From Candidatus Sulfomarinibacter sp. (GTDB lineage Bacteria; Acidobacteriota; Thermoanaerobaculia; Thermoanaerobaculales; Sulfomarinibacteraceae): a DNA stretch of 64,000 nucleotides. Under the pieces are notes generated by a model. That model ran no database searches. It was given only the letters and a program-made list of their open reading frames with translations, and was not told the DNA's origin. The stretch covers positions 1,571 through 65,570 of the forward strand of contig JBFFBV010000015.1 of the NCBI GenBank assembly GCA_041560205.1. Reading direction: 5' to 3'. The position numbers were made by a program, and so were the translations under genes. Below, in pieces: positions 3,193 through 41,617 of this stretch (its first letter is position 1; each line of letters starts with the position of its first letter).

Positions 3193-4151
3193 GGGACTGC
3201 GGATTCCACACGGCCATGGTCCTCGCGGCGGGCCGCGGCGTACGGATGCTTCCGCTCACCTCGGTCCTGCCCAAGCCCGCTCTGCCGCTGCCCGACGATC
3301 CACTGGTCGCATCGGCTCTGCAGCTTGCCGCTTCCGCCGGGGCGTGCCGCATCGTCGTCAATGTCCACCACCTCGCCGAGCGCATGGTCGAAGTGGTGGC
3401 CGCAGTCACCATCGACGGGGTGGAGATCGTGGTGTCGCGTGAGGACGAGTTGATGGGCACTGCGGGCGGCCTCGCCGTTGCCCGGGATCGAGGTTTGCTC
3501 GGTGAGGCGGGGCCGGTGCTCGTGATCAACGGCGACGGCTGCTTCGGTCTCGATCTCCGGAAGCTCGGCGACCGCCACAACGCAGGCGACGACCTCGTGA
3601 CACTCGCCCTGCAACCTCACCCCGACCCCACACGATGGTCACGGGTGACGCTCGACGCTTCCGGCGGTGTCGAGGCGATCCGGCGCGCCGGTCGCCCCGA
3701 TCCCGACGAAGCTCCTTTGCTCTACCCGGGGGTGATGGCGGTGGCGCGCGAGGCCCTCGAAGTGCTTTCGCCGACGCTCTCCGAGACTCCCGCTGCGCTC
3801 TGGCAGCCCGCTCTGGCGGCCCGCCGACTGGGTGGGGCGGTCGTCACCGGCGACTGGCGTGAGGTCGGGACTCCGACAGACTATCTCGAGGTTGTGCTGG
3901 ACCAGTTGGCCGGAGCGTCCGTGGTCGATCCTGCGGCCGAAGTCGGCAGGAACGCGGAAGTGTCCGCCTCCATGGTCGGACGGGGGGCGGTCGTCGGCGA
4001 CGGGACGGTGATCGAGTCGTCCGTCGTCTCCGACGGTGCGGTGATCGGCGAGGGCGCACGGGTCACCCGCTCGGTCCTCCTTGGAAATGTCAGGGTGGGC
4101 CCCGGCGAGATCGTCACCGACTCAGTGCAGGCCAAAGCCTCGTCGCGTTGA
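3189..4151 (+). CDS. Sugar-phosphate nucleotidyltransferase with C-terminal left-handed beta-helix
   Basis: ATG 3189 overlaps the upstream stop (ATGA). LAAGRGVRMLPLT is the nucleotide-binding loop of sugar-1-P nucleotidyltransferases. The C-terminus has hexapeptide-like repeats (VGRNAEVSASMVGRGAVVGDGTVIESSVVSDGAVIGEGARV). Confidence 0.8.
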   Translation: MRDCGFHTAMVLAAGRGVRMLPLTSVLPKPALPLPDDPLVASALQLAASAGACRIVVNVHHLAERMVEVVAAVTIDGVEIVVSREDELMGTAGGLAVARDRGLLGEAGPVLVINGDGCFGLDLRKLGDRHNAGDDLVTLALQPHPDPTRWSRVTLDASGGVEAIRRAGRPDPDEAPLLYPGVMAVAREALEVLSPTLSETPAALWQPALAARRLGGAVVTGDWREVGTPTDYLEVVLDQLAGASVVDPAAEVGRNAEVSASMVGRGAVVGDGTVIESSVVSDGAVIGEGARVTRSVLLGNVRVGPGEIVTDSVQAKASSR

Positions 4152-8176: not shown

Positions 8177-9460
8177 ATGCTCGCCCGTGAACTGTTCCGC
8201 AACGATCCCGAGCGCATCCGCACGATGCTCGGCGACCGCCACACTGAGGCACCGCTCGATCGCTTGCTCGAGGTCGACGCGGCGTGGCGCGAGGTGCTCG
8301 TGCGGGTCGAGGAGCTCAAGGCTCGGCGCAATACGGGCTCGAAGGAGATCGGCGGACTGTATCGCGAGGGGCGGCAGGACGATGCGGAACAGCTCAAGGC
8401 CGAGATGACCGCGCTCGGCGACGAGATCAAGGAGCTCGAAGCCGGCGCCAAGGAATACGAGGTTGAGCTCAACGAGCTTGAGCTCCAGATTCCGAACCTG
8501 TTTGACGACAGCGTCCCGATCGGAGCCGACGAGAAATCCAACCGGACCGAGCGGAGCTGGGGCGAACACCCGGATTTTGATTTCGAGCCCAAGGCCCACT
8601 GGGACCTCGGCCCGGAGCTCGGCGTGGTCGATTTCGAGCGCGCAGCGAAGGTGGCCTCGAGCCGCTTTGCGGTTCTCCGGGGTAAGGGGGCGGCGCTCGA
8701 ACGGGCGCTCATCGCCTACATGCTCGACCTGCAAACCGACGAGCACGGCTATACCGAGATCATTCCGCCCTACCTCGCGAACGAGGCGTCGTTTTACGGC
8801 ACCGGACAGCTGCCGAAGTTTGCCGACGACGTGTTTCGAGTCGAGAACTTCGACCTGTCGCTGATTCCGACCGCCGAGGTTCCGCTGACCAACCTCCACC
8901 GCGACGAGACCCTCGACGAGGAAGACCTGCCCATTCGATACTGCGCATCCACGCCCTGTTTTCGTGCCGAGGCCGGCTCGCACGGCCGCGATGTCCGGGG
9001 TCTGATCCGCCAGCATCAGTTTCACAAAGTCGAGCTGGTCTGCCTGGCACATCCCGAACACTCCTGGCAGCTTCTCGAAGAGCTCACCTCGCACGCCGAG
9101 ACGGCGCTCCAGGGGCTCGAGCTGCCGTACCGCGTGGTGACACTGGCCAGCGGCGACCTCGGGTTTTCGGCCGCCAAAACCTATGACCTCGAGGTCTGGC
9201 TGCCCGCCCTCGGCTGCTACCGCGAGATCTCCTCCTGCACCAATTTCACCGACTTCCAGGCCCGCCGGGCTCGCCTTCGATTCCGGCCTTCCGAGGGCGG
9301 CAAGGCGCGCCTCGTCCACACCCTCAACGGCTCGGCCCTCGCCGCCGGCCGTACCATGGTGGCGGTTTTGGAAAACTACCAGCAGGCCGACGGATCGGTG
9401 GTCGTGCCCGAAGTCCTCCGTCCTTACATGAGCGGGCTCGAGGTCATCGAACCGCAGTAG
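8177..9460 (+). CDS. serS: Seryl-tRNA synthetase
   Basis: 427 aa. N-terminal coiled-coil arm and class II core motifs ([36 protein letters not shown]). Confidence 0.95.
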
Positions 9461-9468
9461 CTGTCTGT

Positions 9469-9537
9469 GGGGATGAGGGAGTGAGGGGATGGGAGAATGA
9501 TCGAGCGGAAGTAAGTCCGAGGGGTGGGGCGGGCAGG
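9469..9537 (+). other. Cluster of G-tracts (G-quadruplex-type motif)
   Basis: GGGG-atga-GGG-agtga-GGGG-at-GGG (9469-9493) and GGGG-t-GGGG-c-GGG (9521-9533) on the + strand, in the gap between convergent serS and the HD gene. Confidence 0.5.
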
Positions 9538-9548
9538 TCCTCAGCCCC

Positions 9549-10133
9549 TCATACGCTCATCCCCCGGGGCGGAAGCTCGAGTTGGTCGGCGATAGTCGCC
9601 ATGGCGTCGCGGACGAACTCGATGTGCTCGCCGAGATCGACCCCGAGCTCTTCGGCGCCGTTGCGGACATCGTCGCGGTTGACGCCGCGGGCGAAGGCCT
9701 TGTCCTTGAGCTTCTTCTTGACCGACTTCACCTTGACCTCGGCAACTGCCTTGTCGGGGCGGACCAGCGCGCAGGCAGTCAGGAAACCCGACAGCTCATC
9801 AACGGCAAAAAGCGTCTTGGCGGCACGACTTTCGCGCGGAATGCCCATGTACTCGGCGTGGGACGCGACAATCCGGATCCAATCCTGCGGCCAGCCACGT
9901 TCCTCGAGAATCTTCATGCCGACGTGGACATGGGTCTCTTCGGTCGGGTTCTGCTGATAGTCGAAGTCGTGGATCAGACCGATCACGCCCCACATCTCTT
10001 CGTCCTCGCCGAATGATCTGGCGTATGCCCGCATCGCCGCTTCAACGCCGAGAGCGTGTTTGATCAGGCTCGGGTTGTCGGTGTACTCGGTGAGCAGCGC
10101 CCAGGCTTCATCACGCGTCGGTGTCTCGCCCAT
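9549..10133 (-). CDS. HD-domain metal-dependent phosphohydrolase
   Basis: ATG 10133 with GGAGG 5 nt upstream. HALGVEAAMR...GLIHDFDY gives the H...HD motif. The extension to 10235 would translate the hexamer repeat as GNGNGNGNG and is rejected. Confidence 0.8.
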   Translation of the reverse strand: MGETPTRDEAWALLTEYTDNPSLIKHALGVEAAMRAYARSFGEDEEMWGVIGLIHDFDYQQNPTEETHVHVGMKILEERGWPQDWIRIVASHAEYMGIPRESRAAKTLFAVDELSGFLTACALVRPDKAVAEVKVKSVKKKLKDKAFARGVNRDDVRNGAEELGVDLGEHIEFVRDAMATIADQLELPPRGMSV

Positions 10134-10164
10134 CTTTGCCTCCGGCGCAGAAGTATAGCTGCCG

Positions 10165-10194
10165 TCCCCGTTCCCGTTCCCGTTCCCGTTCCCG
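10165..10194. repeat. Tandem hexanucleotide repeat tccccg + (ttcccg)x4
   Basis: Perfect tandem array read directly. It lies just upstream of a -10-like TATACT (10152-10157, minus strand) of the HD gene. Confidence 0.85.
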
Positions 10195-10310
10195 AAGTGT
10201 ACGCTCGACACGGGATTGGCTGTTCGTGAACGCAACAGCCTTCAATCGAGACGATTTCTCGAAAATCTACCTATTGCATCAATTTTTTTGCTCATTCTGC
10301 ACAAAATCTA

Positions 10311-10339
10311 TTGACATAATTCATTTCATGCCCCAATAT
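10311..10339 (+). promoter_or_regulatory. Sigma70-like promoter candidate for glnA
   Basis: TTGACA (10311-10316), 17 nt, CAATAT (10334-10339), inside the only AT-rich patch of this region. This places the ATG at 10328 inside the promoter. Confidence 0.5.
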
Positions 10340-10369
10340 CCATCAAACGACACGCCTGGAGGCAACACC

Positions 10370-11701
<1,332 letters not shown>

Positions 11702-30510: not shown

Positions 30511-31734
30511 ATGATCAAAAAGATTAGCCAGCGCGAAATCCAGCTGCTGCTCGTCGCCGCCGTCGCCATCCTCGTGGTCGGCGTGGCGGTCATTTTCGTC
30601 GACACCTCACCGGAGTGGAAGTACTACCAGTCAGAGTTCGAGGCCATCGTCGCCGAGAACATCGCCGACGTTGACCCATCATCCCTGCCGTGGGGGATCC
30701 AGCAGATCTGGGTGGAGAAGCTCGATCGTGTCGACCGCTGCACCACCTGTCATCTCGGCATGACCTGGCGCGGCCTCGAGAACATCGAGCAGCCGTGGAC
30801 CACCCACCCGATGTCCGGCATCTTCGACGACCACCCGATCGAAGAGTTCGGCTGCACGGTCTGCCACGGAGGGCAGGGCTACGCCCTCACCGAGTACGAC
30901 GCGCACGGTTTCGTCGAGCATTGGGAGGAGCCGCTGCTGTCGGACATTGCGGCCTCTGAATACGATCCGCGCAACCCGCCTCCGCTTCACGAGATCCAGT
31001 GCAACTTCTGTCACCGCTACGAACGCTCGACCGAGGGCATGCCCTATATCAACAAGGCCAAAGAGCTGGTGCGGACCAAGGGCTGCAAGATCTGCCATGT
31101 CATCAACGGCACCGGCGGCAAGCTCGGGCCCGATCTGACCCGGGTCGGCGACAAGCACGCGGAGGGCTTCGATTTCTCCAACCTCGTGTCGGATCAGATG
31201 ACGGTCTTCAACTGGCACATCAAGCACTTCCAGTCACCGCCAACGATCGTACCCGGCTCGATCATGCCGGAGATGAACTTCCAGTCATCCGACGCCCACG
31301 CGCTGGCGATGCTGGTCATGAGCTGGCGCGACGACGAGGATCTCCCTCGCGCCTTCCTGCCGGGCGTCGAGCTCAAGGACGAGATGACGCCTGAGGAGGT
31401 CGAGCGCGATCGCCGGATGCGCGAAGGCGACGGCGCCTTCTTCGTCGAGCACAGCTGCTTCGTCTGTCACAGCATCAAGGCCTACGACATCAAATCGCCG
31501 ACTGAAAAAGGACCGGACCTTTCGCTCGCTCCGGATGACGTTCGGGTCAGATTCAACAAGACGGTCGAGGAGTTCCTCTTCGACCCGACCGGCACGATGA
31601 AGATCATTCTCGAGAGCCAGATCGTGCTCACCGACGAGGAGAAATGGCAGGCCGTCGAAAAGATCATGAAGGCCTACGACATCGTCAAAAACAGGGAAGC
31701 GGCGGCCGAGGCCGCCGCCGCAAGCGGTTCGTAG
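30511..31734 (+). CDS. Membrane-anchored pentahaem c-type cytochrome
   Basis: N-terminal TM. Five CxxCH motifs: CTTCH, CTVCH, CNFCH, CKICH, CFVCH. The last two sit in class-I-like units (GPDL...MPEM). Confidence 0.85.
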   Translation: MIKKISQREIQLLLVAAVAILVVGVAVIFVDTSPEWKYYQSEFEAIVAENIADVDPSSLPWGIQQIWVEKLDRVDRCTTCHLGMTWRGLENIEQPWTTHPMSGIFDDHPIEEFGCTVCHGGQGYALTEYDAHGFVEHWEEPLLSDIAASEYDPRNPPPLHEIQCNFCHRYERSTEGMPYINKAKELVRTKGCKICHVINGTGGKLGPDLTRVGDKHAEGFDFSNLVSDQMTVFNWHIKHFQSPPTIVPGSIMPEMNFQSSDAHALAMLVMSWRDDEDLPRAFLPGVELKDEMTPEEVERDRRMREGDGAFFVEHSCFVCHSIKAYDIKSPTEKGPDLSLAPDDVRVRFNKTVEEFLFDPTGTMKIILESQIVLTDEEKWQAVEKIMKAYDIVKNREAAAEAAAASGS

Positions 31735-33669: not shown

Positions 33670-33732
33670 AAATGGCTCGTGGGCCCCGGCGCACCGCTGG
33701 TCGGTCGCCGGGGCGCGATTTTCGAGGTGCAC

Positions 33733-34368
33733 ATGTCTATGTTCAACCGGCTCACCGCATCTCTCGACCAGCCCCTCACGGGTCGCAGCCGGGTGGCGGT
33801 TCTGGTGGCCGCTCTGGTGTTGATCCCGACGTTTTTCGTGCCGCTGTGGCACATGACCTTCGTCGCACAACAATATCCCGAGGGCCTCGACCTCTACGTC
33901 TACTCCCACAATCTTGTGGGGGGCGATGACGGCAATGACCTGACCGAGATCAACGTGCTCAACCATTACATCGGCATGGCCGAGCTGCGGCCGGCAGACT
34001 TCACCGAGCTCAAATGGATTCCGCTGGTCATCGGTTTGATCGGAATCTTGACCCTTCGGGCGGCCTCGATCGGTACGCTGCGTTCGGTGGTTGATGTGAT
34101 CGTGGCGTCGTTCTATTTCGGTGGGTTTTCGATGTGGAGCTTCTGGTACAAGCTCCACTCCTACGGCGCCAACCTCGACCCCAAGGCTTCGGTCCAGGTC
34201 GAGCCGTTTATGCCGCCGATGTTCGGATACAAGCTCGTCGGCCAGTTTGACGTGTGGTCCTATCCGGCGATGGGGACCTATCTCTTTTTCCTCTTCGGGT
34301 TGTTGCTGGTCGTCGGATTCTGGCTGACGTGGCGTGAGGCGGATGTCGACCCGCCATCCGCCGTATAG
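33733..34368 (+). CDS. nosB: NosB-like integral membrane protein
   Basis: Sits immediately downstream of clade II nosZ, the position characteristic of nosB. Four predicted TM helices. The call rests on position and topology only. Confidence 0.55.
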   Translation: MSMFNRLTASLDQPLTGRSRVAVLVAALVLIPTFFVPLWHMTFVAQQYPEGLDLYVYSHNLVGGDDGNDLTEINVLNHYIGMAELRPADFTELKWIPLVIGLIGILTLRAASIGTLRSVVDVIVASFYFGGFSMWSFWYKLHSYGANLDPKASVQVEPFMPPMFGYKLVGQFDVWSYPAMGTYLFFLFGLLLVVGFWLTWREADVDPPSAV

Positions 34369-34381
34369 AAGGGAAGGAATC

Positions 34382-34885
34382 ATGAAGAAACTTGCTCTGA
34401 TAATTCTCGCAACTGCATTTGGAATTGGATGCGGTGGTGCAGCGGAAGAAGCGACCTACGAGAGTGATACACCACCGCCAGCGCCGTTGCTTGAAGTCGA
34501 AGCGCCGGCCGCGCTCGAGGTGCCCGATCCGGTCGAGGTGACGGCCGACGATGATTGGCAGGCGAGGTCCCACAACAAGAACATCGAGGTGATCGGGGTG
34601 ATCAACGTCATCAATCCTGTCGCGGCCTACATCACCGAGGGCTTCAACCAGTACGGCGATAGCTTCAGCCCCACCTTGCACGAGGAGTGGGAGGACACGC
34701 AGGCGCAGCTGACCATGGCGACGACCCTGTACGAAGACTGCCAGGCGCGAATGGCGGCCGGCAACCACGACAAACAGCTCTTCCTCGATCTCGAGCAGGT
34801 GTGGCAGCTGCTGGTCAAGACCGGTGTCGCCGGCGTTCGCACCAAGAGCATGGTCGACAGCGAGCTGGCGAAGCTCAAGGGCTGA
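34382..34885 (+). CDS. Hypothetical lipoprotein inside the nos operon
   Basis: ATG 34382 after GAAGGAA. Signal MKKLALIILATAFGIGC (lipobox-like), acidic Pro-rich linker, then a helical region of about 110 aa. No family recognised. Confidence 0.6.
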   Translation: MKKLALIILATAFGIGCGGAAEEATYESDTPPPAPLLEVEAPAALEVPDPVEVTADDDWQARSHNKNIEVIGVINVINPVAAYITEGFNQYGDSFSPTLHEEWEDTQAQLTMATTLYEDCQARMAAGNHDKQLFLDLEQVWQLLVKTGVAGVRTKSMVDSELAKLKG

Positions 34886-36376: not shown

Positions 36377-37308
36377 GTCCGGTGAGCGACCCGATGGTCC
36401 GATTCGAGGGCTTCGCTAAGTGCTACGGCTCCCTCGAAGCGGTCAAACCGCTCGATCTGGAGATCGCGGAGGGGGAGTCCTTCGCGCTGCTCGGGCCCAA
36501 TGGTGGCGGCAAGACGACGGTGCTGCGCGCCCTCGTCGGACTGCAGTCCCCAACCGACGGCAAGATCTTCGTCGCCGACGTCGACATCACCGCACAACCC
36601 GACGAGGTGCGGAGGCTCTTCGCCTACGTCCCGCAACGGGTGACAATGCCCGACGTGCTCACCGCGCACGAGATCCTGACGACCTTCGCCGGGTTGCGGG
36701 GCATGAGCGAAGATCGGGTGGCCGAGGTGTTGAATCTGCTGGCGCTGACGGATGACGCCGATCGACAGGTCGGTGAGTTCTCCGGCGGTATGGTGCAGCG
36801 CCTCGGGCTCGCCGCAGCACTGCTCGAAGAGGTTCCCCTCCTGGTGTTGGACGAGCCGACCCTCAATCTCGACCCGCAGGGCATCGACAGCCTGCACCGG
36901 GTGCTCACCGAGCTCAACAACCGGGGCACGACCATTATCTTCTCGTCCCACAGCATTCACTCCGCCGTCCAGCTCGCCGACAGGGTCGGCGTCATGGTCG
37001 AGGGCGCTCTCGTGGTGTCGGAGCCGGTCGCGAAATTTCAGGCCGAGGTCACCCGCCAGACGACGGTCCGGGTGGTCCTCGACCGGCTCGATGACGCGAT
37101 TCTCCACGCGGCCCAAAAAGCCGGCGCCGATGTGCGCGAGTGCAACGCGACCCACGTGTCGTTCCGGGCCTTGCCGGAGGCGAGGCTCGAGGTGATTCGG
37201 GCGATCGAGAAGGCCGGAGGCACGATCGAAGAGTTCCACACCGAGGCGCCGGGTTGGGAATCGCTCGTGCAGACCCATTTCAACGGCGGGGGAGAGAGGC
37301 ATGAATGA
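36373..37308 (+). CDS. nosF: NosF ABC-type ATPase
   Basis: ATGA overlap with nosD. Walker A GPNGGGKTT, signature SGGMVQR, Walker B LLVLDEP. Confidence 0.88.
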   Translation: MSPVSDPMVRFEGFAKCYGSLEAVKPLDLEIAEGESFALLGPNGGGKTTVLRALVGLQSPTDGKIFVADVDITAQPDEVRRLFAYVPQRVTMPDVLTAHEILTTFAGLRGMSEDRVAEVLNLLALTDDADRQVGEFSGGMVQRLGLAAALLEEVPLLVLDEPTLNLDPQGIDSLHRVLTELNNRGTTIIFSSHSIHSAVQLADRVGVMVEGALVVSEPVAKFQAEVTRQTTVRVVLDRLDDAILHAAQKAGADVRECNATHVSFRALPEARLEVIRAIEKAGGTIEEFHTEAPGWESLVQTHFNGGGERHE

Positions 37309-38074
37309 GCATGGCCGCGCACCGACCCGGACCGCACATGCGATCGCCATCGTGCTGCTGCCGGTGATCGCCGTTGGGTGCGTCGGCGAGCCGACACCAC
37401 AGATCACGAGCGGCATCGACGGTTGCGCGAGCTGCGGTATGGTGATCGACCGTGGCAACGAGGCCGCCGGGTGGGTCGACGGACGGGAGTTCATGCCATT
37501 TTGCTCCCCCGGCTGCCTGCTGACCGAGTACGATGCCCTGCGCCACTCGGACCGTCCGAAGCCGCAGACCCTGTTCTTCGCCGACTACAACTCCGGCGCC
37601 TTCTCGACCTCGGCCGAGACCGCATTTCTGCTCACCGACCACGTGCCGACGGTGATGAGTGGACGCGTGGTCTGCTTCGGCTCACTGGCCGCCGCCGACG
37701 CCATGCGCCAGCACGACGACGAGACCGTCACCGACTGGACCGGCTTCCGCATCCGACGTGGAACTCCGGACACGGTCATCGAGGCGGTCTTCGGACCCGA
37801 CGGCATGGTTCCCGATAGCGTCGTCGCGAACAAGGGCGATATCGTCCTGTGGCGTTACTCAGGAGAGGACCTGACCCAAGACATGGCCTGGACCATTACG
37901 GGATATCCGGAGGTCGAGCCTCCGCTCGTGACCGCATCCGGTGAAACAGCCGAGGTCAGGTTCATGGCGACGCGGCCCGGCGCGGGTTTCCCGATCGAGC
38001 GTGCCACCGGCGGCAAGCCGCTCGGCATGCTCAAGGTGAGCGGCGCCCACACCCTGGACGAGGCGGCCCAATGA
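37301..38074 (+). CDS. nosL: NosL copper-chaperone lipoprotein with about 100-aa C-terminal extension
   Basis: Lipobox AVGC. The NosL core is DGCASCGMVIDRGNEAAGWVDGREFMPFCSPGCLL. Residues from about 150 to 257 are additional and look cupredoxin-like in beta-strand pattern but contain no Cys or His. Confidence 0.75.
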   Translation: MNEHGRAPTRTAHAIAIVLLPVIAVGCVGEPTPQITSGIDGCASCGMVIDRGNEAAGWVDGREFMPFCSPGCLLTEYDALRHSDRPKPQTLFFADYNSGAFSTSAETAFLLTDHVPTVMSGRVVCFGSLAAADAMRQHDDETVTDWTGFRIRRGTPDTVIEAVFGPDGMVPDSVVANKGDIVLWRYSGEDLTQDMAWTITGYPEVEPPLVTASGETAEVRFMATRPGAGFPIERATGGKPLGMLKVSGAHTLDEAAQ

Positions 38075-38898
38075 GGTCGGCGGTACTGCAGATCGCGCAC
38101 CAGGAGTTTGCACTCCACCGACGCAACCGCTGGGTCGTTTCTTTTGCGATCCTGTTCGCCTCACTCAGCCTCGCGGTCGCGTACTTCGGAATGATCACCT
38201 CCGGCTACACGGGCTTTCAGGATTTCGTCCGTACCTCGGCCAGCCTGATCAACCTGGGCGGGTTTCTGCTGCCGCTTTTCGCGCTGCTGCTCGGGGTCTT
38301 CAGCTTCCTCACCGATCGCGAGTATCTCGAAATCCTCGCCACCCAGCCCGTTTCCCGCCGCGGCATCCTGCTCGGAAAATACCTCGGTCTGTTGATCTCG
38401 GTCCTCGCGGCCGCCGCCCTCGGTTTCGGTCTCCCCGGCGTGGTGATCGCGACCGCAATCGGCGTCGAGGGCGCCGGGACCTACCTCGTGGTCGTGTTCT
38501 TTTCCTGTCTGCTGGCGGCCGTCTTCACGGGGTTGTCGGTCCTCATCGCGCTGCTCGCCGGACGACGACCGGTCGCACTCGGCGTCGCGGTCGGTGTGTG
38601 GATCGTCTTCGAGCTCGTCTATGGGCTGCTGATGTTGGCGACAACCCTGTACCTGCCACCAGCAATCGCGAAAAACGTGCTGCTCGTCGGTCTCGGCGGC
38701 AATCCGATCGACGTCGTACGGGTGCTCTGTCTGCTCGAGGTCGGAGGCCCACACCTCTTCGGCCCGGCCGGGGCGACCCTGGTCAAACTCACCGGGTCAA
38801 GCGCTGTCACCATGGTCATCGGGCTCGCTCTCATCGGCATATGGATCGTGACCCCGGTGCTTCTGTCCATCCGGGTATTTCAGAGGCAAGACCTCTGA
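38071..38898 (+). CDS. nosY: NosY ABC-2 type permease
   Basis: ATGA overlap with nosL. Six-TM ABC-2 permease pattern. Operon context with nosD and nosF. Confidence 0.85.
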   Translation: MRSAVLQIAHQEFALHRRNRWVVSFAILFASLSLAVAYFGMITSGYTGFQDFVRTSASLINLGGFLLPLFALLLGVFSFLTDREYLEILATQPVSRRGILLGKYLGLLISVLAAAALGFGLPGVVIATAIGVEGAGTYLVVVFFSCLLAAVFTGLSVLIALLAGRRPVALGVAVGVWIVFELVYGLLMLATTLYLPPAIAKNVLLVGLGGNPIDVVRVLCLLEVGGPHLFGPAGATLVKLTGSSAVTMVIGLALIGIWIVTPVLLSIRVFQRQDL

Positions 38899-39377
38899 TG
38901 GTCGCTGCGAGAACGGCCCGCGTTCGGACCTTGACGTCGGCTGTTCTCGCGTTCCTCATCGCGCTGCCGGTTCTTCAGTTCCCCCCTCTCGGCTCGGCTG
39001 TAGTGACATCGAAGCCGCGGACGACGGTCACGATGTCGTGCGTCGGCTGCTGTGGTTCGAACTGTCAATGCGCCGGCGACTGCTGCGGCGACACCCATGT
39101 CGAGAAGTCGAACCCGGCGCCACCCGCTTGGTCTGTAGCCGAACGAGTTTCACGGGATCGCGATTGCCAGCGGGGCGGCTGGTTGCTGCCCACCGCCACC
39201 ACGAGCTTCCAGCCATGGACCCGGTCCCCCAGAGCACTCCGGCTCGGGATGACGCGGATTCACCTCGTGGAATCGCTCGAGGTCATGTGCCGGTGGCGGC
39301 GCCCGGCGATCTCGCAGAGCAATCCACGTGCCCCGCCGAGCAGCGGCCCCTCGCCCATCGATCGTCTCATCGGTTGA
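38898..39377 (+). CDS. Hypothetical Cys-rich exported or membrane-anchored small protein
   Basis: ATG shares one base with the nosY stop (TGATG). N-terminal RxR plus hydrophobic helix LTSAVLAFLIALPVL, then CVGCCGSNCQCAGDCCGD (8 Cys in 18 residues). Third-codon positions are mostly G/C along the whole ORF. The distal half is Arg/Pro-rich and less convincing. Confidence 0.45.
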   Translation: MVAARTARVRTLTSAVLAFLIALPVLQFPPLGSAVVTSKPRTTVTMSCVGCCGSNCQCAGDCCGDTHVEKSNPAPPAWSVAERVSRDRDCQRGGWLLPTATTSFQPWTRSPRALRLGMTRIHLVESLEVMCRWRRPAISQSNPRAPPSSGPSPIDRLIG

Positions 39378-39457
39378 TCGTTCCACAACGCTGCCCGGTG
39401 CCGGCTCCAGCAGGCCACCGATGGCAAACCGTGTCTGGAACAGCGAAGGGAGAGCTC

Positions 39458-41617
39458 ATGCAAGGGAAGGAGCCTCTATCGTGTCGATTGCGCGTGGCGT
39501 CGATCGTCGTCTGCCTCGCGGCGGTGCCACCGTTTGCTGTCGCGGACGATGAACAGCCGCCTCGCAACCCGGAGGCGCTCACTCAGAGTGAAGAAAAAGC
39601 GGCGCCGATTCCGATCGTCCGCGCCGAAATCGAAGTATTTGGAAAAATCGCCAAAACCCCGGCTGTCACGACCCTGGAGGCAGCCGATCTTCGCAGCGGC
39701 CAGTCGCGAGATGCCGGTGACCTGTTGCGTATCGCACCGGCCGTCAGCTCCGGGCGGATGGGAGGCCACGGACTCGACCCACGAATCCGTGGCCTCGGAG
39801 AATCAAGCATCCGCGTCCTGATCGACGGCGCCGAGATCCATGGTGGATGTCCGAACCGGATGGACCCGCCATCGTCCTTTGCGGCCGCCGAAAGTTACGA
39901 CCAAGTCGTCGTGGTGCGCGGTGTGCAGACGCTTCGCTACGGGACCGCGCCCGGCACCGTGCTGTTCGAGCGGCTTCCCGTTCGATTCTTCGACGACAGC
40001 TGGTGGCGCGCCTCCGCCAACGCGGTTGCCGGCACCTCCAACGACGGTCCGGCGTTCGGAATCAGCGCCGCTGTCGGCACCTCGAAGTTCTCGTTCGATA
40101 TTTCGGGCGATCGTCTCAAAATGGACAGCTACATCGATGGCAACGGCGACGAGGTGGCGTCTGCATTTGACAGCGTCAACGGCGCTCTCGCCCTTGGCTG
40201 GACGCCGGACGCTCTCACCTCGGTTCGTCTTTCGTACGAGCTCAATCGAACGGTTGACGCCCTCTACGGCGGCGCGGCGATGGACAGCCCGGATTCGGAG
40301 ACCGATGCTGTCCGCTTGAGGTTTCGTCGCGATGCCGGCGACGGTGTCGTCGGCCAAATTCGGGGAGACCTCTACTGGACCGACGTGTCGCACGTGATGG
40401 ACAACTTCTCGCTGCGAGAATGGACGGCGCCGATGGCCATGAGCGCACCATCCACGTCGAAATCCACTGGCGGTCGCCTGTGGGTCGATATCGATCCGAC
40501 CGAGCGATTGGAGCTCTCCGCGGGTCTCGACCTCGCCCACAACGATCGGCAGGCGCTTCGCTTTGCCGGTCCAAACCCGGACAGCGTTTTGATGCTGCAG
40601 TCGGTGCTCTGGCCCGAGGTCGACCTCGAACAAAACGGTCTGTTCGTCGAGGGTCGGATGGGCGTCGGAGCCGCCAGCGCACTACGATTCGGCCTCAGGG
40701 GCGACCGCTTCAACGCCAAAGCCGCCGCAAAGGATGTCAAGCCGGCGGGTATGAGCCCCACTCCACGGCAGCTCTGGGAGAGCTATTACGGTCCTGTCGA
40801 AGACAGCTGGGAGCAGCATATCGTCGGTGGTTTCGCCCGCTACGAACACCGTCTGTTGGCACCCAGAATCGGCTTCTTCGCGGGCGTCAGCCGGACTGCC
40901 CGGGCGGCCGATACGACCCAGCGGTTCATGGCCGGCAACAGTTCGATCGCGCCCAAACGGTGGGTTGGCAACCCGCTCCTCGAGGTCGAGATCCACAACC
41001 AAATCGACCTCGGGATCGAGTATGCGGGCTCGACCGGCGATTTCGAGGTGGCGGTCTTCGCCGATGACGTGGACGGCGCGATCCTCCGTGACCGCGCCCA
41101 CGGCCAGCCGGGCATCTTCAAAAACGACAACGCCACGATCTACCGCAACATCGAGGCTCGGAGACTGGGAGCAGAAATCGTGGGCTCCTGGCGAATCGGA
41201 CAGGCCTTCCACGTCGGCGGTGATGCGGCCTTCGTCTGGGCCCAGAATACGACCGATGACCGGCCGATCGCTCAGACACCGCCACTCGAAGGGAGCCTTT
41301 TCGCATCGTGGGTGAGCGGCCGCTTCAGAGCTTCAAGCGCCGTGCGCTGGGCGGCGGAGCAGACGCGAGTCGACGACAATCCCGTGACCGGCAGCGGTCT
41401 CGATGTCGGTCAGACTCCGGGCTGGGTGATCCTCAACCTGTCCGGTCAGGCACGTCTCGGTCTCGGGTTCGGGTTGCTCGCCGGTGTCGACAACGCGTTC
41501 GATCGGGCCTACGCCTATCACCTCAACCGCGACAACTTCTTCGACCCCGCACCGGTGCAGATCAACGAACCCGGCCGCACCTTCTGGCTCCGCCTCCGCT
41601 GGTCGGGCAATGGATGA
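39458..41617 (+). CDS. TonB-dependent outer-membrane copper receptor (OprC/NosA-like)
   Basis: ATG 39458 after GAAGGGAGAG, with a signal peptide. Plug motif IDGAEIHGGCPNRMDPP contains CxxxM, and SHVMD (HxM) lies about 181 residues later. This is the spacing I recall for the OprC copper site. The ORF-track extension to 39038 is rejected. Confidence 0.85.
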   Translation: MQGKEPLSCRLRVASIVVCLAAVPPFAVADDEQPPRNPEALTQSEEKAAPIPIVRAEIEVFGKIAKTPAVTTLEAADLRSGQSRDAGDLLRIAPAVSSGRMGGHGLDPRIRGLGESSIRVLIDGAEIHGGCPNRMDPPSSFAAAESYDQVVVVRGVQTLRYGTAPGTVLFERLPVRFFDDSWWRASANAVAGTSNDGPAFGISAAVGTSKFSFDISGDRLKMDSYIDGNGDEVASAFDSVNGALALGWTPDALTSVRLSYELNRTVDALYGGAAMDSPDSETDAVRLRFRRDAGDGVVGQIRGDLYWTDVSHVMDNFSLREWTAPMAMSAPSTSKSTGGRLWVDIDPTERLELSAGLDLAHNDRQALRFAGPNPDSVLMLQSVLWPEVDLEQNGLFVEGRMGVGAASALRFGLRGDRFNAKAAAKDVKPAGMSPTPRQLWESYYGPVEDSWEQHIVGGFARYEHRLLAPRIGFFAGVSRTARAADTTQRFMAGNSSIAPKRWVGNPLLEVEIHNQIDLGIEYAGSTGDFEVAVFADDVDGAILRDRAHGQPGIFKNDNATIYRNIEARRLGAEIVGSWRIGQAFHVGGDAAFVWAQNTTDDRPIAQTPPLEGSLFASWVSGRFRASSAVRWAAEQTRVDDNPVTGSGLDVGQTPGWVILNLSGQARLGLGFGLLAGVDNAFDRAYAYHLNRDNFFDPAPVQINEPGRTFWLRLRWSGNG

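Follow-up and report, generated by a model that had tools for sequence, protein, structure and literature searches.

CruR (Bp2923; DUF2946, PF11162), the product of an upstream open reading frame (uORF) in Bordetella pertussis, is a nascent chain that responds to copper through a CXXC motif and a RAPP motif at its C-terminus (Roy et al., mBio 2022, PMC9426467). Mutagenesis of CruR showed that the CXXC, the ~45-residue spacing and the RAPP are needed for copper regulation and that the export signal is dispensable; without copper, stalling permits a TonB-dependent transporter encoded downstream to be expressed, and with copper the stall is lifted and transcription is ended by Rho (PMC9426467). 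For CutF of Rhodobacter capsulatus, co-translational Sec export, a periplasmic CxxxC and a C-terminal proline motif serve to melt a stem-loop that hides the Shine–Dalgarno (SD) sequence (PMC9973294; bioRxiv 10.1101/2025.02.05.636593). TonB-like neighbours are common among CutF-like genes, some of which overlap nosZ or nosR (Ozturk et al., mBio 2023, PMC9973294). RAPP and RGPP are the two most robust arrest cores refractory to elongation factor P (EF-P); proteomes show a depletion of both, but an enrichment close to the C-terminal end of those small secretory proteins whose genes lie upstream of genes for TonB-dependent receptors or of copper genes (PMC12992588). Here, we describe a Cys-rich open reading frame (ORF) of 159 codons located between nosY and the gene for an OprC/NosA-type TonB-dependent copper receptor in Candidatus Sulfomarinibacter sp. 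(Acidobacteriota; assembly GCA_041560205.1, contig JBFFBV010000015.1, positions 1,571 to 65,570 of the forward strand; this stretch of 64,000 nucleotides is called the window below and all coordinates are counted from its first letter). We propose, with a probability of roughly 0.7, that the ORF encodes a nascent-chain copper sensor of the CruR/CutF type that gates expression of the receptor inside the nos operon.

Direct reading places the ATG of the ORF at 38898–38900 and its stop at 39375–39377; the nosY TGA (38896–38898) overlaps the ATG as TGATG, as an initial annotation made from the letters of the DNA alone had stated. The G/C-rich third codon positions described there are also borne out (GC3 = 0.76 across the 159 codons; neighbouring genes 0.75–0.85). 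The comparison of coding potential suggested at that stage had a mixed outcome, the codon-usage score being the best of the three forward frames but weak (-0.09 versus 0.31–0.49 for the neighbours). Codon usage alone is thus equivocal, and the ORF is accepted as a gene on comparative evidence. A search of 5.8 billion proteins gave six full-length relatives with 49–63% identity, and a profile search of 1.84 billion representatives together with a second profile search enlarged the family to 17 sequences of 157–205 residues, beyond which neither profile search gave anything further. The family consists of the window ORF and 16 full-length relatives, all derived from metagenomes or metagenome-assembled genomes and representing about 17 clusters. 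In the 16 relatives the frame stays open over this length despite synonymous divergence (dS) above 1. When compared with the related loci L001 and L004, the ratio of nonsynonymous to synonymous divergence (dN/dS) is 0.3–0.5 for the whole ORF and likewise for its distal half, versus 0.06–0.12 for nosY and 0.12–0.14 for the receptor; it falls to 0.04–0.08 in the Cys motif, where the L004 comparison has 0 second-position and 8–9 third-position differences. The ORF is therefore a real gene under selection, as first supposed. The accompanying worry that the distal half might be read-through of noncoding DNA is unfounded up to residue 147, given that the frame is open at dS > 1; constraint on the protein seems to be lacking only in its final 12 residues.

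No Pfam family matched the ORF in a Pfam scan. An NCBIfam hit to Csx18 (E = 0.0037, 17 bits versus a 50-bit cutoff) covered the signal region only and was dismissed. Scanning 185,579 species genomes with the family alignment revealed no genuine member; the single match (L006, 8001–8237, Actinobacteria bacterium AM_0849) is a spurious, off-frame, Arg-rich translation inside another gene, a false positive that we attribute to searching for a Cys-rich pattern in GC-rich DNA.

The N-terminus has the positive charge and the hydrophobic helix that the initial annotation had noticed: R5, R8 and R10 precede hydrophobic residues 14–26 (mean Kyte–Doolittle value of 2.6), and a helix at residues 4–27 is the sole confident part of an AlphaFold2 (AF2) model built with the family alignment (model pLDDT, the predicted local distance difference test, of 47.8). 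Beyond this helix the pLDDT is below 50, with a shallow alignment, and disorder is predicted. A single N-terminal hydrophobic segment (13-residue Kyte–Doolittle mean of 2.0–3.1), with no second segment, is found in 17/17 members, and the 12 residues preceding it carry a net charge of +2 to +5 in 15 of them. Along the rest of the chain, three islands of conservation stand out by their majority-residue fraction, namely the Cys cluster (0.78), a box around Cys90 (0.67) and residues 131–147 (0.75), with the remainder at 0.24–0.50. The residues invariant in the 17 sequences are C48, C51, C52, C56, C58, C62, C63, H67, C90, R144, P146 and P147.

The first island (residues 48–67, CVGCCGSNCQCAGDCCGDTH) holds seven of the nine Cys of the protein and His67; the His of the original count of eight Cys and one His in 20 residues stands and the Cys number is corrected to seven. 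Nested within it is a C48-x-x-C51 that is invariant in 17/17 sequences, with CSCSC at this place in L021, a further locus outside the 17. Its pattern suggests that the cluster would bind copper. Cys90 lies 53–54 residues from R144 in 17/17 sequences, while the distances from H67 to C90 (23–30 residues) and from H67 to R144 (76–84 residues) vary. The third island ends in R-[A/G]-P-P at residues 144–147, a motif that the initial annotation had overlooked. It is invariant in 17/17 sequences and in L021, with Ala at position 145 in eight sequences, Gly in nine and nothing else; it is placed 3–19 residues ahead of the stop (the PP is 3–12 residues from the end in 16/17 and 19 in P0018) and its codons vary synonymously among loci. 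By analogy with the described RAPP peptides, ribosomes would be expected to stall here.

The constant partner of the family is the receptor. In every locus with downstream sequence (the window, L001, L004, L008, L010, L011, L013, L014, L019, L021 and the P0002 and P0004 contigs) the next gene begins 57–114 nt past the stop, and it is a TIGR01778 or Plug-domain receptor in every case where a family scan is feasible, which leaves out the truncated downstream ORFs of P0002 and P0004. In about ten loci, the distant L011, L021 and L007 included, nosY is upstream, usually with the TGATG overlap, which is also present in L001, L004, L018, L019, L021 and the P0002 and P0004 contigs. In L008/L009, the only case in which the family gene comes first, it stands with the receptor alone between bacA/ftsK and unrelated genes, with no nos genes, and in L013 the pair follows a 721-residue unknown protein, again with no nos genes nearby. 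Because the pairing persists in these nos-free loci, the constant partner is the receptor and not nos. The nos context and adjoining copper receptor that had been read from the window are thus supported by family matches including TIGR01778, and of the synteny expected for homologues the position directly upstream of a copper receptor holds, whereas the nos linkage is not universal. No PepSY_TM gene was found downstream of the family gene in the loci examined.

On TIGR01778 the window receptor scores 472.8 bits, barely above the cutoff of 472.45. It carries the CxxxM and HxM motifs that define the copper site of OprC (Bhamidimarri et al. 2021, PMC8610252); for both NosA and OprC, expression under anaerobic conditions and repression by copper are on record (PMC8610252). 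In L013, which lies on a contig of 1.2 Mb, separate ORFs encode the Plug (8676–9974, 432 residues) and the barrel (10036–10857, 273 residues) of the receptor, a split that may reflect a frameshift, a pseudogene or misassembly, and the uORF has a long N-terminal extension that brings it to 205 residues. Coordinates of the features of the window locus are collected in Table 1.

Table 1. Features of the nosY–receptor junction, in window coordinates; roles given as putative, candidate, predicted or proposed are interpretations.
Feature	Position	Strand	Basis or remark
nosY, ABC-2 permease of NosDFY	38071..38898	+	PF12679, E 8.7e-20
Cys-rich ORF, 159 aa, putative copper-sensing arrest-peptide uORF for the receptor gene	38898..39377	+	16 full-length relatives, dN/dS 0.3-0.5, no Pfam match
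Export signal, residues 4-27	38907..38978	+	Charged n-region, then the only hydrophobic segment of the ORF protein
Cys cluster C-x2-CC-x3-C-x-C-x3-CC-x3-H, residues 48-67, putative Cu(I)-thiolate sensing site	39039..39098	+	Invariant in 17/17
C90 box, residues 86-99 (Cys90 codon 39165-39167)	39153..39194	+	Invariant lone Cys, fixed distance to arrest motif
Putative arrest peptide, residues 131-147, CRWRRPAISQSNPRAPP	39288..39338	+	R144, P146, P147 invariant
RAPP core, CGT GCC CCG CCG	39327-39338	+	Residues 144-147
Predicted stall, Pro146 in P site and Pro147 in A site	39333-39335 and 39336-39338	+	Geometry from PMC10951233
Post-RAPP tail and stop codon	39339..39377	+	Unconstrained as protein, conserved as nucleotides
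Candidate anti-SD CTCGCCC	39350-39356	+	RNAalifold
80-nt spacer (central hairpin region about 39393-39416)	39378..39457	+	Nucleotide conservation
Receptor Shine–Dalgarno GAAGGGAGAG	39445-39454	+	Within spacer
OprC/NosA-type TonB-dependent copper receptor, proposed regulated gene	39458..41617	+	TIGR01778 E 2e-141, Plug and barrel domains
Receptor CxxxM, C131-x3-M135 (plug)	39848-39862	+	Context common to annotated copper receptors
Receptor HxM, H312-x-M314 (barrel)	40391-40399	+	Context common to annotated copper receptors

The RAPP motif, the fixed ruler between Cys90 and this motif, the predicted disorder, the islands of conservation and the placement before a receptor are hallmarks of CruR, CutF and the RAPP/RGPP uORFs, leading us to propose that the ORF acts as a regulatory sensor in cis. 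In such a mechanism, the ORF would be translated through its coupling to nosY and the N-terminal signal would bring the nascent chain to the Sec translocon. With R144-A-P146 in place and Pro147-tRNA in the A site, peptide-bond formation would then stall in a RAPP-type arrest. At this point the 7-Cys/His cluster would be 79–98 residues from the peptidyl-transferase centre, which, with ~30 residues allowed for the tunnel and ~17 for the membrane (the figures used for CutF), would place it beyond the translocon in the periplasm, and Cys90, at 56 residues, would be near the channel exit. When copper is scarce, the stall would persist and, by keeping the leader RNA open or by blocking Rho, would allow expression of the receptor gene that begins 80 nt downstream. 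Once the periplasm contains enough Cu(I), the thiolates would bind it and the resulting compaction would pull on the chain and free the stall, whereupon the ribosome would terminate and receptor expression would fall. Cu(I) drawing Cys90 toward the cluster would shorten the tether and so pull the chain, which would explain the fixed distance from C90 to RAPP. The sign found in CruR, with the stall as ON and copper as OFF, is favoured here since the regulated gene is an importer known to be copper-repressed. The location at the end of nosDFLY would make copper import depend on both nos transcription and the need for copper. The released protein may possibly have a second role as a copper binder.

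The region that follows the motif may bear on the output step. As protein, the post-RAPP tail is poorly conserved (0.24) and of variable length (3–19 residues). As nucleotides, the segment from the RAPP codons to just past the receptor ATG has 80% column identity among the window, L001, L004, L018 and L019, compared with 58–74% nucleotide identity for the ORF. A [GC]TGATCG block in this segment contains the stop codon of the ORF in the window and L001 and is intergenic in L004, L018 and L019; in these three loci the ORF stops 8 nt earlier and is aligned out of frame, yet the nucleotide conservation persists. Conservation irrespective of reading frame points to constraint on the tail and spacer at the RNA level. 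Each locus has a spacer hairpin of differing sequence, and RNAalifold pairs the candidate anti-SD (alignment columns 24–30) with GGGAGAG at 39448–39454 of the SD. In 7/8 loci the main predicted partner of the SD is found between -25 and +32 nt from the Arg codon, and a modelled stalled-ribosome footprint clearly frees the SD only in L004. From RAPP to the start codon, the excess of C over G, considered with a view to Rho-dependent termination, is mild (49 versus 39 in the window) and is absent in some loci. Searches of the spacer turned up no Rfam family and neither an intrinsic terminator nor a sigma-70 promoter. Sequestration of the SD is suggestive in these models but not significant.

Several observations weigh against a nascent-chain sensor. 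Stalling, copper binding, the sign of the response and the output mode are all inferred, and the RNA evidence for the last, whether by SD unmasking or by anti-termination, is weak: the helix between anti-SD and SD consists mostly of invariant pairs with a covariation term of +2, which is a penalty; the z-score of the minimum free energy is -0.70, so that the fold is no stabler than shuffled sequence; and the SD is mostly paired (probability of being unpaired 0.00–0.40), but shuffled sequences are about equal in this respect. R[AG]PP occurs 28 times in six-frame stop-to-stop segments of the window, which has a GC content of 63%, and is informative here only through its conservation. The other open frames that bear it were rejected as Arg-rich, off-frame junk, and its absence from 24,764 residues of likely genes in the window, where ~0.9 would be expected, is not significant alone. 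The dN/dS of 0.3–0.5 outside the motifs is compatible with some function of the mature protein. The distances to RAPP of 76–84 residues for the cluster and 53–54 for Cys90 differ from the 45 residues of CruR and CutF, the family (157–205 residues) exceeds the rule of <150 residues for CutF-like proteins and, unlike CruR, the gene is not first in the nos-linked loci, being start/stop-coupled to nosY instead. Finally, a relationship to the family of CruR was not detected. None of 14 members matches PF11162, even at E <= 10, while controls do (E = 5.5e-9 for a Klebsiella uORF and 2.7e-4 for a Thioclava uORF), and hhalign of the 17-sequence family with five DUF2946 uORFs, collected by hand from plasmid records, gave a probability of 0.6% over the ten RAPP columns only.

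Profile searches with the family alignment also reached no PF11162 protein, and a homologue search with the Thioclava DUF2946 uORF retrieved only the query itself. The gene order is shared with that family. Klebsiella plasmids encode a ‘DUF2946 domain-containing protein’, ending in ...RARAPPAAFLSAN, directly upstream of a TonB-dependent copper receptor, and the equivalent uORFs of Thioclava, Cupriavidus metallidurans CH34, Burkholderia and Ralstonia have RGPP or RAPP 2–4 residues before the stop. The family described here is either a very diverged relative of DUF2946 or a convergent solution. A more specific version of the second possibility, which we regard as tentative and somewhat doubtful, is that a periplasmic, metallothionein-like cluster for several copper ions and a gatekeeper Cys90 at the translocon exit would make up a graded sensor of the Cu(I) pool that gates a NosA-type importer in a clade II nos operon, possibly with a thiol-redox input. 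If so, this would be a built-in feedback that matches copper import to the assembly of N2O reductase.

Of the classical DUF2946-type uORFs named above, three lie upstream of copper receptors on the Cupriavidus metallidurans CH34 megaplasmid (L023, 978–1346), in Burkholderia stagnalis (L024, 860–1225) and in Ralstonia sp. (L025, 804–1220). They have a signal, a C-G-[YA]-C motif and RAPP or RGPP 2–3 residues before the stop, and none is a listed feature in the plasmid gene tables, which are incomplete. On the Pandoraea oxalativorans plasmid pPO70-1 (L015), no annotated DUF2946 gene lies upstream of the copper receptor; a 52-residue frame found there (3723–3881), without an obvious signal peptide, ends in ...ERCACACRSRAPPERGCDAHFLFF with CxCxC next to RAPP and is perhaps a leader in minimal or degenerate form, or else open by chance.

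Among other explanations, the initial annotation had suggested a stable Cu(I) buffer or relay, periplasmic or membrane-tethered, between the importer and NosL/NosDFY, in which case RAPP would be incidental or would tune synthesis. An export signal, an invariant metallothionein-like Cys cluster with a His, the location between nosDFLY and the copper receptor, the coupling to nosY kept in most loci, the dN/dS of the non-motif regions and a length beyond that of typical CutF-like leaders would all suit a protein that carries copper from the receptor to NosL or NosD. However, R[A/G]PP, invariant here, is a motif against which selection acts strongly in ordinary proteins (PMC12992588), C90 and RAPP keep a fixed distance where the other spacers vary, disorder is predicted for the chain, members of the family are also found beside a receptor in loci that lack nos, and the tail after RAPP is conserved as RNA and not as protein; moreover, CruR and CutF, which are analogous, escape detection in cells or are rapidly degraded. 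What survives of the suggestion is a copper-related gene with an export signal, a thiolate motif under selection and a tie to the receptor; a relay as its main function we consider improbable.

The structural evidence for a nascent-chain sensor would also serve for an arrest uORF that senses periplasmic thiol-disulfide state or oxygen, instead of or besides copper. Oxidation of the Cys cluster by an enzyme of DsbA type would fold the emerging chain and free the stall, and synthesis of the receptor would then belong mainly to reducing, denitrifying conditions. Seven Cys exposed to an oxidizing compartment, the enrichment of RAPP/RGPP uORFs upstream of DsbA and thioredoxin genes as well (PMC12992588), and a nos context that implies anoxia, in line with the anaerobic expression of NosA/OprC (PMC8610252), fit this explanation. 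Yet the obligate partner, nos-free loci included, is a copper-specific receptor, His67 with the CC/CxC pattern is typical of Cu(I)-thiolate sites, and the precedent systems respond to copper; redox as the input is thus quite unlikely.

The Cys-rich exported peptide beside a TonB-dependent transporter also resembles the logic of mbnA–mbnT, and MbnPH-like genes are present in some DUF2946 operons (PMC9426467), which would fit the precursor of a ribosomally synthesized and post-translationally modified peptide (RiPP) resembling a chalkophore, secreted to bind copper and re-imported through the adjacent receptor. Such a precursor is very unlikely because maturation genes were not found: no locus neighbourhood has an MbnB/MbnC-type or other modifying enzyme or an exporter. 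In addition, the products are 157–205 residues long with conserved C-terminal features, and OprC-type receptors import ionic copper through the CxxxM/HxM that are present here. Lastly, the weak codon-usage score, the nearly open +2 frame and the lack of a Pfam match might suggest that the frame, or at any rate its distal half, is intergenic GC-rich DNA that stays open by chance, but this is excluded by the selection analysis, with a frame open in 16 relatives at dS > 1, dN/dS below 1 in every region, no second-position change in the Cys motif and invariant residues spread to position 147.

The gene order in the window is Sec-type clade II NosZ (TIGR04246), two unknown ORFs, NosD (TIGR04247), NosF, a NosL-like protein, NosY, the ORF and the receptor. 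The NosL-like protein (257 residues, 37301–38074) occupies the expected nosL slot between nosF and nosY; it has a sub-threshold NosL match (PF05573, E = 0.018, residues 40–135), a CxxCGM-like motif and an additional C-terminal half of ~120 residues without a match, and it is kept in all related loci with a dN/dS of 0.16–0.2. The two ORFs between nosZ and nosD (33679–34368, 229 residues and membrane-like; 34334–34885, 183 residues) have no Pfam or NCBIfam match; syntenic counterparts occur in L001 (229/167 residues) and on the P0002 contig (208/167 residues), and the two probably encode lineage-specific accessory proteins of clade II nos. Directly upstream of nosZ, an ORF of 407 residues (30511–31734), whose L001 counterpart has a faint cytochrome c match and weak FixO matches, may encode the electron donor of this clade II NosZ.

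Each dimer of N2O reductase needs 12 copper atoms, and N2O is known to be released where copper is limiting. To our knowledge, little is understood of how copper import is matched to nos expression, and for a long time there was no explanation of why copper represses NosA and OprC. If our proposal is correct, a lineage of uncultivated clade II N2O reducers has placed a nascent peptide that senses copper at the junction of nosDFLY with the gene of a NosA-type importer; production of the importer would then require both an active nos operon and a shortage of copper in the periplasm. It would also mean that RAPP-based metal-sensing leaders exist beyond the DUF2946 profile with a different sensing module. 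Surveys based on that profile would undercount such leaders, since families such as this one lie outside it, and annotation pipelines would continue to label them hypothetical proteins or mistake them for metallochaperones. Elements of this kind have been known since 2022; the family, its sensing module, its spacing and its position at the nosY–receptor junction are new. A literature search found no paper describing the family at this position. In not recognizing such a component among described nos clusters, the initial annotation was justified as far as the position goes, although the kind of element was already known.

Among described systems, CruR shares with the ORF a small exported protein, a Cys-based copper motif (putative in the ORF), RAPP a few residues before the stop, a Cys–RAPP spacer conserved in length, poor predicted structure and a receptor expected to be copper-repressed, as well as a long spacer followed by a TonB-dependent transporter gene, the OprC-type TIGR01778 being among the usual CruR partners. 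It differs in having a single CXXC in place of the 7-Cys and His cluster with a lone Cys90 and in its length (about 120–145 residues versus 157–205), and no PepSY_TM gene, which can follow genes of the CruR family, lies downstream of the ORF; sensing by CruR is proposed to be cytoplasmic, whereas the geometry of the ORF suggests a periplasmic site. CutF, which acts in cis, is likewise separated from the next gene by a short stretch (<100 nt) that has a stem-loop close to the SD of that gene, and the signal, same-strand neighbour and Cys motif of CutF-like proteins are present in the ORF family. However, CutF turns on a detoxifying oxidase at high copper, while here an importer is expected to be turned off; its CxxxC is 45 residues from an EF-P-dependent motif containing PPP, in place of the RAPP/RGPP reported to be EF-P refractory; and the nos-linked CutF-like genes overlap nosZ or nosR rather than lying at the nosY–receptor junction. 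The bacterial Cu(I) metallothionein MymT and the Cys-rich periplasmic copper protein CopG (CxCC motif) are stable end products with similarly dense CC, CxC and CxxC thiolates and His, but the ORF has in addition a putative arrest motif, a fixed spacer and an obligate place upstream of a receptor, and it has no sequence-family match. Like ApdA/ApdP and SecM, the ORF encodes a small secretory protein upstream of the gene to be controlled, with a RAPP/RGPP core near the C-terminus (PMC7897499, PMC10951233, PMC12992588), and release from arrest would be expected to occur through force on the exported chain. Those peptides monitor the export machinery (Sec, YidC) and have no metal motif, whereas here the input would be copper bound to the Cys cluster.

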